A DNA stretch of 64,000 bases from a virus. Its lineage: Duplodnaviria > Caudoviricetes. The stretch covers positions 136,690 through 200,689 of the IMG/VR virus record IMGVR_UViG_3300047160_009226; one strand, given 5' to 3'. Position 1 is the first letter of the stretch. The number at the start of each line of letters is the position of its first letter. Shown here one piece after another: positions 36,279 to 58,682 of the stretch. The notes below the pieces were generated by a model, which was not told the origin of the DNA, made no database searches, and saw only the letters and a program-made list of their open reading frames with translations. A program made the position numbers and the translations under genes.

Positions 36279-37070
36279 TCAATAATTCGTAATCAACACA
36301 ACCTCAATCTCATTGTCTTCTTTCGATCTCACTAACTCAGTCACATCAAATTTATATAACAACAAACGCATAAACGCTGTATTGTTATCAGTGACAGCCC
36401 ATCTTATCCCACGCTTATCCAGATCTATGCATACTGTAGTTAATCTTGAGTAATCCTTCTGAGTAAATTCAAAAGTATCTTTCTCATTTCTGTGGTAGCC
36501 AAAAACTCGTTTCTCCGGGCATGGAGGATCAAAATAAATGAAGTCATTTTCTTTTGCTGATTCTACGGTCTCTTCAAAATCTCCATACTCCAATTTGACT
36601 CCCTTTAAAGCTTTAGATACTGCCTTGAGATTTTCCTCTGTATAAACCGATTGTATCTTTCCAAAACTGACGTTAAACTCTCCACGTCTATTCGTTCGAA
36701 AGATTTCTCCAAACGAAAGTTTGTTCAGGAAAATAAAATGAGCGGCCCTGTAATTCACATCGATGTGATCAGGGATGATTTTCCTAACTCGATTGTAAAC
36801 TTCACGACAGGGAGTCAAACTTTCCAAAATCTTGACGACTCCCTGATAGTCATCCTTGATCGCCAAGTACATATCCATGAGCCAGCAATTCTTATCCCCA
36901 AGAACTGCGGGGTAATGCTGACTCTTAAGGAACACACTTGCCGAACCAACTAAAGGTTCATAGTATGTTCCAAAGTCCAGGGGAAATCTCTCTTGAACCT
37001 TCTGGGCAATCTCATACCGATTATCTGGCCAAGATATGACCGGATGAGGTTGAACTTTCAGGGATTCCAT
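36279..37070 (-). CDS. Dam-family (D12 class) adenine methyltransferase homologue with degenerate catalytic motifs
   Basis: Overall Dam layout (YYEP, LGDKN..L, FNVSFG, FIYFDPP); DPPC for DPPY, EPLVGSA for EPF.GGG, SWPDNR for KW.GGK; start refined to ATG 37070. Confidence 0.8.
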   Translation of the reverse strand: MESLKVQPHPVISWPDNRYEIAQKVQERFPLDFGTYYEPLVGSASVFLKSQHYPAVLGDKNCWLMDMYLAIKDDYQGVVKILESLTPCREVYNRVRKIIPDHIDVNYRAAHFIFLNKLSFGEIFRTNRRGEFNVSFGKIQSVYTEENLKAVSKALKGVKLEYGDFEETVESAKENDFIYFDPPCPEKRVFGYHRNEKDTFEFTQKDYSRLTTVCIDLDKRGIRWAVTDNNTAFMRLLLYKFDVTELVRSKEDNEIEVVLITNY

Positions 37071-37071
37071 T

Positions 37072-37866
37072 TTATTGGTTGGAAGGGTCTTCAACCCAGG
37101 TTTTGTTGTGTATAATACTCCATATACTCGGTTCAGTTAACCCATATTCCAATGCCAAGTCTTTTTGAGTGTAGTTCCCGGTGGCATACTTCACTCGTAT
37201 CTCTCTAGCCTGTTCCAACTTCAACTTCGCATTTCCATTGTTTTCCCCCTTCTTTCCTTTACCTCGAATAACTTTACCTACATTATTATATCGATTAGGA
37301 GGACTTTCAACCCATGCCCGGTTATTTAAAATCCTCGATATTGTATTTCTAGAAAGACTATAATCAAAAGCTAACTCTTCCTGATCATACCCCCCAGTAT
37401 CATATTTCGCTCGAATCTCTCTGGCCTGTTCCCAGTTTGATTTCGCATTATAATGGGTTTCTGCCCTAGGAATCGTCCCATGCGTTATTCTATCAATATT
37501 ATTACCTCTACATGTGTCATACCGTAAATTCCACCAATAATTATTTGCGGGATTGCCATCATTATGACAAACTTCCATCCCTGCCGGGCAAGGTTCTGAA
37601 ACCGCTTCTAGAACCAACCGATGAACCTTGTTCGTGTATATAACTCCATTAAAACTGAGGTGAATAAAGAAATATCCGTCCTTATCTCGTCCTGGATTTA
37701 GTCTCGTCCAATTATTGGACACAATCCAATTCCACCCTATCTTTTGATATCGACTCCAAATGGACCCGTCATCCCCAACAAGATAAACACTATCAAAGTT
37801 TGGAATCACAAAATACCGAACCACCGCCGCATCTGAACCAACATTCTCACTCCAAAATTCGTACAT
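37072..37866 (-). mobile_element. Free-standing NUMOD4-HNH homing endonuclease with tandem C-terminal HTH domains
   Basis: Y.VGDDGSIWS, KVHRLVLEA...MEVCHNDGNPANN...NLRY; two copies of AK....Q.REIR.KY..G...Q..LA..Y.L....I..I..N..W. Confidence 0.9.
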
Positions 37867-52843: not shown

Positions 52844-53731
52844 CTAATTAGAACGAGGAAGTGATCCTTGTGCGAAATAGGATGCTTCCCATTTTATCGT
52901 TTCGTTCGGACCGGCTATTCCAGTAAATTGTCTCTGTGGATCTCGTATCAGATTATCAATAGTGATGGTATCAAGAGGTCCCATACCAGGAGCGACACCA
53001 ATCTGAAGCTGTAAAGTTCCTATATCTTTTGGCCTGTTATTGCGTGCTGCAAGCCAGGCAATCGTAAAAGTGATATCAAGATCGCCGGCTGAAATCAATG
53101 CAGGGTTAGGTGGCTGTGTGTACCCCGCTAGAAAATGTTGGTATTGCCATTGATTATTAAAAGTCAAAGACCAATTCATCGGAATCGCATTAGATGTAAT
53201 TACTGTAAAATTAGGAATAGTCTGCCATCCAGCTATGGGCCGATAATTATCACTCATCGGAAATAGCGGAGGTACCGGTTGTCTCTGTAATACTTGTGGT
53301 GAAGCCACTTCCTTCCATACCCACGCTGTCATGTTAATGTTTAAACTGACTAGTGATTCTGGAGAACCCGCTATCGTCAACTCATCGACATACCCTGTTC
53401 CACTGTAACCTTCCCCAACCGCAGGATAAATCTCAAATGAAACCTCTGGAACCATATCCATAAGATTCAAGGTTCTCCATTCGTAAGTCAAAGCCTTAAC
53501 CAAGGACATTGTAGCAGGACAGATAAATGTGGCAAAACTTACAGGTAAAGACCTCCTATTCTTAACTGCTAATGGACCTACTGCTAATGCAGGGTTATTG
53601 TGATAAGCGCCCCCCGCTTTAATCACATTTTCACTTTCTGAAGCACTCCCTGGAAGAAGAGGAATAGGTATGCCATTCACAATGGCATAGCCGGAATACC
53701 CTAACCCATCGAAAATATCGGTAGCTGGCAT
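52844..53731 (-). CDS. Tail tube-like protein, paralogue 2
   Basis: GYSGYAIVNG, YSGTGYVDELTIAGSPESLVSLNINM, NWSLTFNN...PNPALISAGDLDITF. Confidence 0.75.
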   Translation of the reverse strand: MPATDIFDGLGYSGYAIVNGIPIPLLPGSASESENVIKAGGAYHNNPALAVGPLAVKNRRSLPVSFATFICPATMSLVKALTYEWRTLNLMDMVPEVSFEIYPAVGEGYSGTGYVDELTIAGSPESLVSLNINMTAWVWKEVASPQVLQRQPVPPLFPMSDNYRPIAGWQTIPNFTVITSNAIPMNWSLTFNNQWQYQHFLAGYTQPPNPALISAGDLDITFTIAWLAARNNRPKDIGTLQLQIGVAPGMGPLDTITIDNLIRDPQRQFTGIAGPNETIKWEASYFAQGSLPRSN

Positions 53732-53740
53732 GATTTACAC

Positions 53741-54535
53741 TCAAGCAGTCCGTGATTTCACCCATAATATCTCTGTTCTACGGCTTTTAGCCCCCTTGAG
53801 GGGACTGCTAAAAGCTGCGATGTCGATCTCTACACGATCCCACCCAGAAAGTTCTTTATCGTACATATGATGTGCATATCCACTCAAGATAACACTTCCC
53901 TTCAGGTCTTTAATTAATCTGAGCAATCGGAGATGATCGAACGATAATAACTCATTGGTATACATATTATGAGCCACTCGCGTTGACCTATAATAAGGAG
54001 GATCAAGGTAGAAAAATGTTTCAGTAGAATCATACTCAAGAATGACGTCGAGAGCAGATTTCGAAACTATTCTCACCCCCTTTAATCTCCGTGCTACAAT
54101 AGGAATATTATAGGGCAGGGTTTCCCAAGATTCCCCTTTCTCATCTGTTTTCACCCAACTCCCACATCCAGAAAACGACATGCGGTGACGAATCAACAAA
54201 TTCACTGCCCGTGTCAATTCATCACCTTGACCAATCGCAGATCGGGCAGCTAAAAAAGTTTCCTTCTCCCATTTCGTCTGCCGAATCCTCTCCATTAACT
54301 TTTCCGGTGTCTCAACTAGCACATGATAAAAATTAATGACCTCCTTATTAATATCACACGCAATTTCAATGTCTGATCTGAACTTATTTAGCAGGACACT
54401 CAGACCTCCAGCAAATCCTTCCACGTATGTGGTATGAGGCGGGGACATCTGAAGAATACGTCGACAAATTATGGTCTTTCCCCCGTAATAATTTAAAATG
54501 GGGCTAACTTTTTGAGCTACATAATTCTCAATCAC
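53741..54535 (-). CDS. dam: Dam-family N6-adenine DNA methyltransferase
   Basis: PILNYYGGK, YVEGFAGGLSV, FFYLDPPYY. Confidence 0.9.
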   Translation of the reverse strand: MIENYVAQKVSPILNYYGGKTIICRRILQMSPPHTTYVEGFAGGLSVLLNKFRSDIEIACDINKEVINFYHVLVETPEKLMERIRQTKWEKETFLAARSAIGQGDELTRAVNLLIRHRMSFSGCGSWVKTDEKGESWETLPYNIPIVARRLKGVRIVSKSALDVILEYDSTETFFYLDPPYYRSTRVAHNMYTNELLSFDHLRLLRLIKDLKGSVILSGYAHHMYDKELSGWDRVEIDIAAFSSPLKGAKSRRTEILWVKSRTA

Positions 54536-54640
54536 TTTCCAATCCCTCCAATAAAATTATACCTAAGTAAACAATACATTATCACACTGACATAGAAAAC
54601 ATCCGCAGTCATCCACTTGACTAAGCCCCAGGTCAACCCC

Positions 54641-55450
54641 CTAAAACCACCTAGACTTCACCCACACCACCTCGACTCTTTGTGACTTGACCTTATCCGT
54701 AGAAGAATTAATCGACGTCTCAAAAGAATATTTTTCCCAACCATCAAGCTCTTTATTATAAACTGGATTGTCATACCCACTGATAATGACATTACCTTGA
54801 CACCTGAGAATTCTTTTAAGTAAAAAAAGATGTTGAAAAGCTGTCATCTCATATTCATACGCGTTAGAAGATTGCCTGGTTGAAGGATAATAAGGAGGAT
54901 CTAAATAAAAACTAGTGTTTGGTCCGTCATACCGATCAATTAAATTCAGAGCTGGCTCATTGTAAAACTCCACCCCCTGGAGTCTATAAGCCGTAAACTT
55001 GAGATCCTCGTCAAGATAGCCCCAACCGCTCTTTTTACTCTGCTCACTGATCTTACCAGAGATCTTTGAAAAATAATCGCCCATTCCAGAGGACGACATG
55101 CGATGCTTGATCAAAAAATTAAGAGCCCTGTCTACGGGATCTGTAGATATCCCCGCAGCCAAGGCTCTCTTGAAGACTTCTTCTCTATATGGGATATCTT
55201 TCAGACGATCTAAGATAACAGAAGAGTAATCCCTAACTGTTTCATAGAGGTGAATAAGTTCGGTGTTGAGATCACCGACTATCTCAGTTCCATACTTACA
55301 CTTGTTGAGCAGAACATTCAATCCACCTGCAAATGGCTCGACATAAATATCAGAGTCAGGAATAAGATCAATGATTCGACGGGCTAGAAAACTTTTTCCT
55401 CCGTACCACTTCAAAACTGGTCTAACCTTGAAATTGATATAGTTTGCCAC
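54641..55450 (-). CDS. dam: Dam-family N6-adenine DNA methyltransferase (tandem paralogue)
   Basis: PVLKWYGGK, YVEPFAGGLNV, FYLDPPYY. Confidence 0.9.
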   Translation of the reverse strand: MANYINFKVRPVLKWYGGKSFLARRIIDLIPDSDIYVEPFAGGLNVLLNKCKYGTEIVGDLNTELIHLYETVRDYSSVILDRLKDIPYREEVFKRALAAGISTDPVDRALNFLIKHRMSSSGMGDYFSKISGKISEQSKKSGWGYLDEDLKFTAYRLQGVEFYNEPALNLIDRYDGPNTSFYLDPPYYPSTRQSSNAYEYEMTAFQHLFLLKRILRCQGNVIISGYDNPVYNKELDGWEKYSFETSINSSTDKVKSQRVEVVWVKSRWF

Positions 55451-55459
55451 GACTTTTCT

Positions 55460-56032
55460 CTATAATACTTGTTCTTCTACCCATCTCAAATTATTTACAA
55501 TTCTACTAATACAAGAAACACGAACATTAAACTCCAGAGCCAAAGCTTTTTGACTTACTCCGTTAGCATATCTTCTTCTAATTTCTCTCACCTGTATCCA
55601 ACCCAATACCGCCTGATGATTTCTTTCCCCATTTTGATCTGTCCCATGAATGAGCTTATCATAATGGTTGTTTACCCTTGTATCATATCGCAAATTCCGA
55701 TAATCATTGTTAAGAGTATCGCCATCATTATGACAAACTTCCATCCCCTTAGGGCAAGATCCATACACCGCTTCACACACAAGTTGGTGAACTTTTCTAG
55801 GACATTTATTCCCATTAAAACAAAGGAAAGCCATCCGATATCCATCACCACCTACTGATGCTTTTAATCTCGTCCAATCATCTGATATATAACAATCGCT
55901 AAATCCTCGGCGTTTATACCTACTCCACAGAGAGCCATCATCTCCAATCGCATATGCACTTCCAAAACCAGGAATCCAAAAATATCGAATCGGACCATCA
56001 GATCCGACACCAATACTTTGAAGATTATACAT
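55460..56032 (-). mobile_element. Free-standing NUMOD4-HNH homing endonuclease
   Basis: YAIGDDGSLWS, KVHQLVCEA..MEVCHNDGDTLNN..NLRY, C-terminal HTH; paralogue of 37072..37866. Confidence 0.9.
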
Positions 56033-56041
56033 CTTAATACC

Positions 56042-56092
56042 TCATAAAAATTTAACACATGGTCTAACTTTAAAATTGATATAATTAGCCAT
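56042..56092 (-). other. 16-codon mini-ORF duplicating the first 11 codons of dam 54641..55450
   Basis: MANYINFKVRPCVKFL* versus MANYINFKVRPVLKWYGG. Confidence 0.8.
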
Positions 56093-56100
56093 GTGAAAAC

Positions 56101-56289
56101 TTAGTTCGTGTTGATGAGTGGTGCTGTCATGTATCCGAATTTGGGTGAGACTCGAATCAGGTAATTCGTTGACTTATCCTGAAAGAAGATGCTGTGCTGA
56201 GGTAATCTAATGAGTAAATCAGCGGCCCTCTCTAACCTTTTTCGGTTCTCGATCTCGTTCTGTTTCTTTTGTGAAATGGGTTCAATCAT
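56101..56289 (-). CDS. Small hypothetical protein, 62 aa
   Basis: ORF track 56101..56418 trimmed to ATG 56289, downstream of the tube stop. Confidence 0.5.
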   Translation of the reverse strand: MIEPISQKKQNEIENRKRLERAADLLIRLPQHSIFFQDKSTNYLIRVSPKFGYMTAPLINTN

Positions 56290-56311
56290 TGAAAAAACCC
56301 TGTCCCCCCTA

Positions 56312-58682
56312 TCACGTATAAGACATGGCCATGGGAGGTGCGGTGCCATCACCGAGTCCTCCGAAACCAAAAGTACGCGGCACGACTTCGTTCTGCCCTG
56401 CAATAGCGAACTCTTCACTCGTCAGAAGGACATGTGCGAATGTGATCGTCGGATTCGTACCGCCACCAGTATTACCCGCAAGGAACAGAGTGACATTCGT
56501 CGTTGACGCGGTGAATGGTGCAACAGGTGGCCACTGATATGCATACGGGTCCGGAATCACACCATCCCGGAATAGACGCATCGTGCCATCGACACTCATA
56601 ACACCCTGAAAGACGGCTGCAGGGTTTGGATCCCCTGTGCAATTCGATACCGTAATCCCATTGGCAATAAATGAACGTGTGCTTGATTCGTACACGTCAT
56701 AAACATCAACGGGATAGTACCAGGGAGTAACTCTTTCAACCTTATCAAAGTACCAGTCCTGTGCCTGATACATTCTCAAAAGTTGGAGTTCAGAGCCAGA
56801 GCACTTCAAAGTTTCTGCCCGCTGAATAATGCGAGGCAAAGTCGTCTCAGCCAAAACGTTCGAATGTCCATTCCTAACGTTCTTAATTCGAGCCGTCGTC
56901 GCATCTTCTTCTCGATCCCTGGCTTTATACACATACTTACCAGGGAACAGAGCCCGAATCAGAACCTGAGCATAGGGAACATACAGGGATTTATCAATCT
57001 CCTGTGTCCGGTTCGCAAAGTAAGATTCCAAGGCGTCCTGCTTGGAATCCAATGCAAAACCAACTTTCTCTAGGAACCACTTCCTGCTGCGAATCCCAAC
57101 CACCCGAACGTCATACCTTCTTGCAACATACTTTCGTCCGTTGATCTCAGACTTAAAAGACGTCGGAGTAATGGTGGAAATGACTCCCAGCAAATGCAAA
57201 GCTCGACGAACATCCCTGGCCAAAAAACGATACTTGGTCGAAAAATGAATAACACCTCCATTTCTCACACCACCATCCGTAGTGAATAAGCCTCGTAGCA
57301 GTGCTCCCAATTGCTTCTCTCCCAAAGACCACGTCTGTTCAGGGAGTCCCTTCTCTCTCCACCGGCCCTTCGGTTGATAAGAAGGAATCTCAGTGAATTT
57401 TGATCGATCCGCCTTTCGTGTACCCAAGTAAAATTGAGTCTGTTCGCAATCCATCTCCCCATTTTCCAACTCAAACGGAGGACGAATCGACTCAGAATAT
57501 TCAAGACCCTCTTCCTGGAAGAAATCCTCCAGTAGAGATACCAAGCTCTTCTCAGACTCAGTCACTTGCCATACCAATCTCCCGTTATCATCCTGAGATC
57601 CATCTCCATAAAGATGACCGATGGCATACCACCTCTTGATCGACCCACCACGATCCTCAGGGATCAACCCTCCATGACCACGACGACACAACAACCAATC
57701 TCCCTCCCCCAACTCATCGGCCCGTTTCCAGCTCAGCGTCCCGTCACCACGCATCACTCGCATCTTATGATCTGGAGTGACTCTGATATCGTTATGCAGC
57801 TCGGTACGAATCCTCAGGACGTCCCTCTTGCCCTGATAAACCAATCCCCTGTGCCTCTGAATTCCATGCTCAGAAAGCACCCGACCAGGCTCATCCAACA
57901 AGGAATCAATCCGATGATAACCTATAGGTGTCATGATTCTTGAGTCTGCGGCTAAACAACCACGCACGACTTGTGTGTTGTTGTTCATAGTCCAGTCAGC
58001 TCCCATCATAAACATGCCCGTTGGATTCGTCGGAGAGTAATTCGGCGGAGCCCCTCCCGGCCAACCACCCCCAGCAGGGAAATTAGGAGGCCACAGATTC
58101 ACCTGTGCCTGAGCCAACCAACCAGGAAACGGATTTCGGTTGATAGGAGCCGGATTCAAAGGGAGTGTCGGTACGTTCGATGTTGTCCGGACTGCCCGAT
58201 ATGTACTTGCAGAGTAAGTCTCTGATCTCTGCAAACCGATCACATTGCAATTCAACTTGATTGATGCCGCTGGATCGACCGTAAACCCAGCTGAATTCAT
58301 CCAGACCCCACCACGGGTATTCCCAGTAGGATTGGGATCAGCCTGAAAAGACTGGATCGCCAATCCATTCGGCGACACGATCATGCTCTGAGGATACACC
58401 CTCCAGTTGACTAACCAGTCCGAAATCAAATTCCAGACCGTAGGAAGACCTCCCTGAAGTTCGAAGGTCAGTGCCCCTGAGAATTGCATCTGACTATCTG
58501 CGTAGTTTGTGTGTTGAGCACCAGTCCACCACCCGGCTCCCCATACTGCTTCGGAGAGAATCGGGTTCACCTCGCGGTTCAATCCACCCGTGTTTGTCAA
58601 CAGGAGAATTGCAGGATATTGACCGCCTGGAGATGCGGTAGGTCCACCTAACTTCGCAAAACCCGAAGTACCCTATTGACAT
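56312..58682 (-). CDS. Tail tube-like protein, paralogue 3, intein-containing; true start at 58682 needs a +1 shift at codon 8
   Basis: Exteins align with the other tube paralogues (GYFGFAKL vs GYSGYAIV; ADWTMNNN...PNPAAVFQG vs NWSLTFNN...PNPALISAG); SD GGGGGG before 58682. Confidence 0.75.
56642..57958 (-). mobile_element. Intein with LAGLIDADG homing endonuclease (439 aa)
   Basis: Block A G|CLAADSRIMT, block B IRVTPDH, LAGLIDADG-like AIGHLYGDG and LRGLFTTDG, block F/G VYDV...FIANGITVSN|C. Confidence 0.95.

Follow-up and report, generated by a model that had tools for sequence, protein, structure and literature searches.

A putative gene-end-replacing homing cassette with an HNH_3 endonuclease at the 5' end of a tailed-phage adenine methyltransferase gene

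Among the homing endonuclease genes of phages, those of the Seg and Mob types lie between genes, or split one gene into two working pieces, and are not known to bring a duplicate of the target's end with them. SegF and other free-standing endonucleases of phage T4 are reportedly spread by intronless homing, and mobE is said to split nrdA in phage Aeh1. The locus described here lies in the last 64 kb (hereafter the window) of a 200,689-bp IMG/VR virus record and resembles these systems in its free-standing phage homing endonuclease, its presence/absence polymorphism and an apparent co-conversion of flanking markers. It is unlike them in that the putative cassette in the window carries a duplicate of its target's end.

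Gene-end replacement is itself already known, from fungal mitochondria and from yeast. The mitochondrial mORFs, found in Allomyces macrogynus atp6 and in Glomus atp6, atp9, cox2 and nad3, have a native copy that matches a close relative and an inserted copy that is diverged in nucleotides and conserved in protein (Beaudet et al. 2013, PMC3630166). Our locus shares with them an endonuclease ORF accompanied by a duplicated gene end, the native end being displaced and the foreign one lying in the gene, as judged from a filled/empty pair of relatives (L008 and P0004, below). The mORF duplications, however, are C-terminal, involve LAGLIDADG or GIY-YIG enzymes and reside in organelles, whereas that in the window is N-terminal, involves an HNH_3 enzyme and resides in a tailed phage. 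In the WHO elements at FBA1 of Torulaspora and Lachancea, each homing event swaps the gene end for the donor's diverged copy, the replaced end is extra diverse, and some copies have transposed to other loci (Coughlan et al. 2020, eLife, PMC7282813). There too, the endonuclease gene sits between a full-length target and a displaced end fragment that gives homology for recombination (PMC7282813). WHO elements nonetheless act at the 3' end of a nuclear gene, through an intein-like LAGLIDADG/zinc-finger protein and in meiosis, in contrast to an HNH_3 gene at the 5' end of a phage gene, and the displaced piece in the window, unlike theirs, keeps its start codon and so reads as a short ORF that immediately precedes the endonuclease gene. 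Cleavage specific to one allele, demonstrated for WHO (PMC7282813), is a prediction for the window's enzyme. A looser likeness is to restriction-modification (R-M) genes inserted with long target duplication, which are flanked by a direct repeat of more than 30 bp and lack a transposase (Furuta et al. 2010, PMC2853133). Both are nuclease-bearing inserts flanked by a direct repeat of the target, but those repeats are near-identical and enclose a whole R-M cargo, whereas the window has diverged 5'-end alleles and its methylase is the target. A full-text literature search found no phage description of a gene-end-replacing architecture, although one may exist; a paper on Xanthomonas phages reports HNH genes and tail-fibre domain duplications, with no flanking gene-end repeats. 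The window thus differs from the published cases in its tailed-phage host, its HNH_3 enzyme, the use of the 5' end, and a displaced piece that would serve as a mobile ORF or leader.

All features of the locus lie on the minus strand. A tail-tube-like gene with a LAGLIDADG intein (58600-56312) is followed by orf62 (56101-56289), the native upstream neighbour of dam1, whose TAA stands 8 nt before the ATG of a displaced dam1 5' end. This displaced piece comprises a mini-ORF of 16 codons plus TGA (56042-56092) within a remnant whose full homology to dam1 extends over codons 1 to about 19, to the GGK codons (56035-56092). After it come an HNH_3 homing endonuclease gene of 190 aa with a C-terminal helix-turn-helix (55460-56032) and an intact dam1 (54641-55450), which encodes a D12 N6-adenine DNA methyltransferase of 269 aa (Pfam PF02086, E=3.5e-20). 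The first 20 codons of dam1 (55391-55450), opened by a GTG, have a non-native upstream flank and, by analogy with L008 and P0004, are inferred to be a replacement 5' end belonging to the cassette. The next gene, dam2 (53741-54535), is a D12 paralogue 42% identical to dam1 in which the HNH site is empty. The FAGG(L) and DPPYY motifs, corresponding to the SAM-binding FxGxG and DPPY motifs, are invariant across the dam family.

Direct base comparison bears out the duplication of the dam start on both sides of the HNH gene that had been claimed from a first reading of the DNA: positions 56092-56060 and 55450-55418 agree at 28/33 bases and encode the same peptide, (M/V)ANYINFKVRP. Of the five differences, one is in the start codon (ATG versus GTG) and four are at synonymous third positions; with only 20% of the possible single changes silent across codons 2-11, the chance of four out of four being silent is 0.0016. 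The first-pass annotation had described the copies as differing only at silent positions, which holds for codons 1-11 and fails at codons 12-17, where the upstream copy reads CVKFL-stop and the functional one VLKWYG. The Cys12 of the remnant is a natural variant also present in the P0004 allele. Across both strands of the 64-kb window, all other 33-mers stay below 22/33; when the upstream 1 kb was shuffled 2000 times, no best match scored above 22; and local alignment of the two HNH flanks gives z=13, with 0/300 shuffles as good. As in mORF- and WHO-type elements, therefore, an intact gene and a displaced copy of the same gene end stand on the two sides of an endonuclease ORF. The short upstream ORF is likewise as had been claimed, its TGA overlapping the GAGG at 56043-56040, with 7 nt separating that GAGG from the HNH ATG at 56032.

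Which of the two copies is the older resident can be read from their flanks. The sequence GAACTAAGTTTTCAC directly precedes the window remnant, and GAACTAAGTTTTCA directly precedes the dam1 ATG in the HNH-less relative L007, with the same motif in L171 and before the L008 remnant. The shared element cTAAGTTTTc thus stands before the remnant in the window and L008 and before the gene itself in the HNH-less L007 and L171, where the order is an orf61-67, then cTAAGTTTTc, then the dam1 ATG. The flank of the functional copy is unlike this native one and is formed by the 3' end of the HNH gene. Because its native flank is common to HNH-less L007 and L171, the upstream copy is, on this sequence evidence, the resident dam1 start in its ancestral place, with the stop codon of the orf62 homologue 8 nt ahead of it. 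This agrees with the earlier proposal that the HNH gene had left an old start upstream and that a second start restores dam, the HNH gene being followed by a dam1 that is complete and has codons 1-20 of its own.

The insertion point proposed with it needs revision: the HNH does lie inside the dam 5' end, but not at codon 11-12, as remnant homology extends as far as the GGK codons, at about codons 18-20. Against a panel of dam 5' ends, the window remnant aligns over 53 nt with the 5' end of L006 dam1 (z=10.8, 0/300 shuffles), and ends in ...TTTTTATGAGG where the L006 dam1 counterpart has ...TTTTTCGGAGG. Since the alignment ends there, the remnant appears to reach the GG codons of the conserved YGGK motif (about nt 53-58, or codon 18-20), and the TGA of the mini-ORF would be the former GGA codon 17. 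The remnants at dam2 in L006 and L009 likewise end at GGK(T) codons (the L009b remnant being detectable only against other dam2 alleles), such that in 5/5 dam-site insertions the remnant homology stops at the GGK codons and the HNH gene starts within a few bases. All six HNH leaders have a G-rich, GGK-derived 3' end right before the start codon, and the GGK codons contain a GGAGG-like string at the spot expected of a Shine-Dalgarno sequence. In the window, the GAGG is likely the Shine-Dalgarno of the HNH gene and seems to be derived from, or microhomologous to, the GGA GGA codons. Such a string may have come from the target, from the cassette itself, or from microhomology used at the first insertion.

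The layout recurs among relatives of dam1. Megablast found no match to the locus in 50,697 phage records, and hence no close isolated-phage relative, and single-protein pattern scans of IMG/VR gave distant relatives only; a large protein collection held about 20 dam1 relatives at 60-85% identity. DNA or gene order was recovered for 12 of these, with P0003 and P0075 (84% identity) outside the set and the P0004, P0007 and P0011 contigs compared by gene order only. L006 (85% identity) has a remnant, an HNH gene and dam1, with a flank duplication at z=14.5, and also a second remnant and HNH gene at dam2; L008 (79%) has a remnant, a frameshifted HNH gene and dam1; and L009 has a remnant, an HNH gene and dam2, together with a further HNH gene between its tail-tube gene and orf61. 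The layout is therefore present at dam1 in two related contigs (L006, L008) and at dam2 in two (L006, L009). Eight HNH-less relatives were found. In six distinct sequences representing seven loci, dam1 is HNH-less by sequence (L007, L009, L010, L168/L170, L171, L172), and by gene order the P0004 and P0007 contigs have no HNH gene beside dam1, the order in P0004 being tail318-orf61-dam1. The first-pass annotation had proposed comparing the dam start in HNH-less relatives, and all seven loci read as DNA lack the duplication: within up to 2 kb upstream, the best match to a second dam1 start is at most 20/33. No duplication without an HNH gene was seen among them. Empty dam2 sites occur in the window, L007, L012, L168 and L171; an apparently truncated dam2 in L171, considered as a possible scar, proved to be an intact gene called from a late start.

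Recurrence also bears on two other origins of the repeat, a scar of local duplication or recombination with a passenger HNH gene and an assembly chimera of two strains, either of which we regard as very improbable. A chimera gains some room from the public read data, which yielded only low-depth fragments: four soil runs contributed short identical contigs at depth 1-6 that contain no joints and leave 55891-56103 uncovered. One run's contig, however, spans the HNH-dam1 junction exactly, and three independent assemblies show the architecture, in different sequences and at either of two paralogous genes, always with its junction at the GGK codons. A scar is further disfavoured by duplications flanking HNH_3 genes at other targets, considered below.

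That the functional 5' end is imported can be examined most directly in L008 (filled) and P0004 (empty), which are sisters on the dam1 tree (support 99/96) with very short branches. Their dam1 proteins, the level at which native and imported ends were compared, are identical at 258/265 residues and differ at residues 6, 12, 13, 15, 66, 75 and 82, with none of the differences in the last 183. Four of the seven thus fall within residues 6-15 (Fisher p=7e-4, residues 1-20 versus the rest). D6 is common to the L008 remnant and P0004, and the functional copy of L008 has S6, I13 and Y15, as does that of L006. This fits an imported functional 5' end and a native displaced copy in L008, with a short co-conversion tract, as seen in fungal mORFs and WHO elements. 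For the window, where no near-identical HNH-less relative was found among the dam1 relatives examined, the same assignment (displaced copy native, in-gene copy foreign) is inferred from the flank evidence. The replacement start had been thought recoded, so as to be immune to cleavage. It looks instead like an ordinary diverged allele travelling with the cassette, the L008 5' end differing from P0004 exactly there. The codons GTT (codon 12) and GGA GGA AAA (codons 17-19) are common to the three HNH-linked functional copies, but these copies are also close relatives, so that shared ancestry could explain them as well as immunity could. The locus is in addition a mosaic. Its left flank is nearer to L008, with orf62 and the remnant flank at 65-68% nucleotide identity versus 40-48% to L006, and its HNH gene is nearer to L006, at 67-86% versus 48-78% to L008. 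On the dam1 tree, HNH presence requires at least two changes.

The endonuclease belongs to the HNH_3 family (Pfam PF13392, 47.3 bits against a cut-off of 24.8). Residues C100, H101, D103, N109 and N113 are invariant in seven relatives, in keeping with a His/Asn catalytic core, and there is a weak direct sequence match (E=8e-4) to I-HmuI of Bacillus phage SPO1 (PDB 1u3e). It shares with I-HmuI the Pfam family and an HNH core with a C-terminal helix-turn-helix; I-HmuI, however, is intron-encoded and nicks its target, whereas the window enzyme is free-standing and a predicted nuclease. HNH_3 genes are often intron-borne, and tblastn matches of the HNH protein overlap annotated thymidylate synthase genes in Acinetobacter phages, which raises the question of a group I intron whose HNH ORF splits dam. 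We give this next to no credence: an Rfam search of 53000-58000 returned no match at E<=1, the gene downstream has a start of its own and is complete, and the piece upstream duplicates part of it where an exon would complement it. A TTGAGA-16-TATTAT string inside the HNH 3' end was dropped as a candidate promoter, matches in the promoter/terminator scan being no more frequent than in shuffles.

The HNH proteins from dam1 and dam2 sites group together, with 66-73% identity among them. An identity of 70% between the enzyme at dam1 in the window and the one at dam2 in L006 suggests that the gene has moved between these paralogous sites. The L008 HNH gene, frameshifted and only 51-57% identical to all others, may for these reasons be a separate lineage or a decaying copy. 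Related HNH genes also lie beside the tail-tube gene in L007, L009 and the P0011 contig. Within the window, a paralogue, HNH2 (37072-37866, minus strand; HNH_3, 49% identity), sits directly upstream of dam3 (36279-37070, minus strand), a divergent D12 methyltransferase with 27% identity to dam1. Over its whole length, the 77-nt stretch preceding HNH2 (37945-37869) aligns with 56118-56035 (z=4.5, 0/300 shuffles), covering the 3' end of orf62, its TAA, the spacer and the ATG/dam1 start region; against dam 5' ends alone the match is weak (z=2.3), and it is significant only against the whole dam1-site leader. On the strength of this alignment, HNH2 appears to carry a worn souvenir of the dam1 site, a decayed third copy of its leader that would have travelled with the HNH gene. 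A similar case is L009a, an HNH gene at another genomic site than L006a, where 28/32 of the nucleotides just ahead of the gene match the L006a remnant in its decayed 3' part (z=10.3). Flank-versus-flank alignment found no duplication at the L007 HNH (before the tail-tube gene), at L009a or at HNH2 in the window, where dam3's own 5' end was not duplicated. As HNH2 adjoins dam3 with no such duplication, end replacement is evidently not used by every member of the HNH family.

Both HNH genes of the window stand directly upstream of D12 methyltransferases, and L006 has an HNH gene at both of its dam genes, as would be expected if nuclease and methyltransferase formed a functional pair (R-M-like or anti-defence) with the short ORF as a regulatory leader. 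Obligate co-occurrence of the two is nevertheless not observed. L007, L168 and L171 have dam1 and dam2 without an adjacent HNH gene, in a set of 156 D12 methyltransferase loci of more distant relationship none has a related HNH gene within some 4 kb, related HNHs adjoin the tail-tube gene as well, and the duplication layout is also met at unrelated target genes. We therefore hold a functional pair to be improbable.

Taken with the recurrence of the layout, the empty sites and the native flank of the remnant, the imported 5' end leads us to regard the locus as probably a gene-end-replacing homing cassette, composed of the HNH_3 gene and dam1 codons 1-20 with their own start, and inserted immediately behind the GGK codons of the YGGK motif in a phage gene for a D12 adenine methyltransferase. 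The endonuclease is predicted to cut HNH-less dam alleles near codons 12-20. The broken left end, with the recipient's codons 1 to about 20, would then pair with the donor's upstream remnant, and the broken right end with the donor's dam body. Repair would copy in the HNH gene together with the donor 5' end, and the recipient's old start would consequently stay behind as a short ORF, with dam left intact behind a foreign first 20 or so codons. The remnant would in turn provide the left-hand homology for the next round of homing, as in the yeast WHO elements. The old start would still be translated, ending in or near the GGAGG-type Shine-Dalgarno that the GGK codons supply, so that the remnant is probably also a source of expression signals for the HNH gene. 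A role of the mini-ORF in translational coupling would be compatible with this arrangement, and the replacement copy may be immune to cleavage.

The peptide of the remnants is well kept: those of the window, L006 and L008 all encode MANYI(N/D)FKVRP (N6D in L008) despite 5-6 silent differences per pair. This could reflect a single old insertion, inherited vertically, whose mini-ORF selection has kept as a translated leader of the HNH gene. Other features point the same way, in that the stop of each remnant ORF precedes the HNH start by 1-19 nt, the remnant start may pair in a hairpin with codons 9-12 (z=-2.6), and the decayed HNH2 leader retains a 17-codon ORF ending 1 nt before the HNH2 ATG. 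The peptide of that ORF is unrelated, however, so the amino-acid sequence itself is not kept, and a 17-codon ORF would be open by chance in about 44% of cases. Vertical inheritance fares poorly with the patchiness of the HNH gene among near-identical dam1 genes (L008 versus P0004) and with the discordant similarities of flank and HNH. We accordingly think this reading unlikely. The loss of the peptide at HNH2 and the patchy HNH distribution favour the explanation that remnants are refreshed at each homing from recently functional recipient starts, which accounts for the silent-only pattern without any function of the peptide.

Beyond the dam genes, we screened 34 distant HNH_3 loci from IMG/VR, 31 of which were testable, and found duplications of a flanking gene end at 3/31. 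L199 has a 62-nt 5' repeat of an unknown gene (z=15); in L188, where the HNH_3 ORF is of double length (337 aa), a weakly GT11-like gene next to it has a 5' repeat, MSG(I/V)ITM...GRWGN (z=11); and L179 has a 3'-end repeat of a weakly SWIM-like gene (z=3.8). It is conceivable, if somewhat short of an even bet, that end-replacing cassettes are a common, unpublished lifestyle of phage HNH_3 genes, used at perhaps one in ten loci in this small screen, in which the displaced start becomes a portable translated leader that ends at a GGK-derived GGAGG and is carried to paralogous or unrelated sites, as at HNH2 and L009a.

If the cassette reading is correct, homing endonucleases have a way into the coding start of a gene that needs neither an intron nor an intein and keeps the gene alive, and a mechanism proven in yeast and fungal organelles would extend to tailed phages and to 5' ends. 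It would account for short orphan ORFs and "recoded" repeats near phage HNH genes, which annotation pipelines miss or miscall. The window, L006, L008, P0004 and L007 moreover form a natural series of filled and empty sites for the study of I-HmuI-like target recognition. Finally, the model predicts that gene ends beside such cassettes would be mosaic and fast-evolving.

Duplicated gene ends flank HNH_3 genes in unrelated IMG/VR phages. The 5' end of the flanking gene is duplicated at loci L188 (1837-3000) and L199 (2407-3124), and the 3' end at L179 (2427-3061); the HNH_3 ORF of L188, at 337 aa, is of double length. Within the window, the remnant, which is the dam1 start displaced upstream of the inserted HNH gene, coincides with a near-perfect inverted repeat on the minus strand (CACATGGCTAA / TTAGACCATGTG; 56045-56095), in which the remnant start codon is paired with codons 9-12, and the resulting hairpin has a minimum free energy of -21.6 kcal/mol (z=-2.6). 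At the other end of the insertion, a sigma-70-like match (TTGAGA, 16 nt, TATTAT; 55462-55489, minus strand) falls within the 3' end of the HNH gene, just ahead of the dam1 GTG; in this region, matches of this kind do not outnumber those in shuffled sequence.

HNH2, the second HNH_3 gene of the window (37072-37866, minus strand; 264 aa), carries its C-terminal helix-turn-helix module twice, in tandem, with the repeat units (residues ~122-187 versus ~194-260) being 43-44% identical. The third D12 methyltransferase, directly downstream (36279-37070, minus strand), has DPPC in place of DPPY and WPDNRY at the position expected for YGGK, and still matches PF02086 (E=7e-27) despite these altered motifs. 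In the related contig L013, a homologue of the dam1 paralogue dam2 lies directly downstream of a tRNA-Leu (taa) at 109-185.

Among the relatives, L008 has a dam1-site HNH gene (709-1286) with one frameshift, near residue 84; either this copy is decaying or the assembly is in error. In L009, an HNH gene (170-818) separates the tail-tube gene from orf61, a homologue of dam1's native upstream neighbour; the leader of this HNH gene is a dam1 remnant that has been partly deleted. In the window, the tail-tube-like gene (56312-58600, minus strand) contains an intein of the LAGLIDADG type (matching Intein_splicing and LAGLIDADG_3 in Pfam); intein-less forms in relatives measure 317/318 aa. Contig P0011 likewise places an HNH gene between the tail-tube gene and orf61, as judged by gene order only. 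On L009 and on the gene order of P0011, this interval is a second recurrent HNH site.
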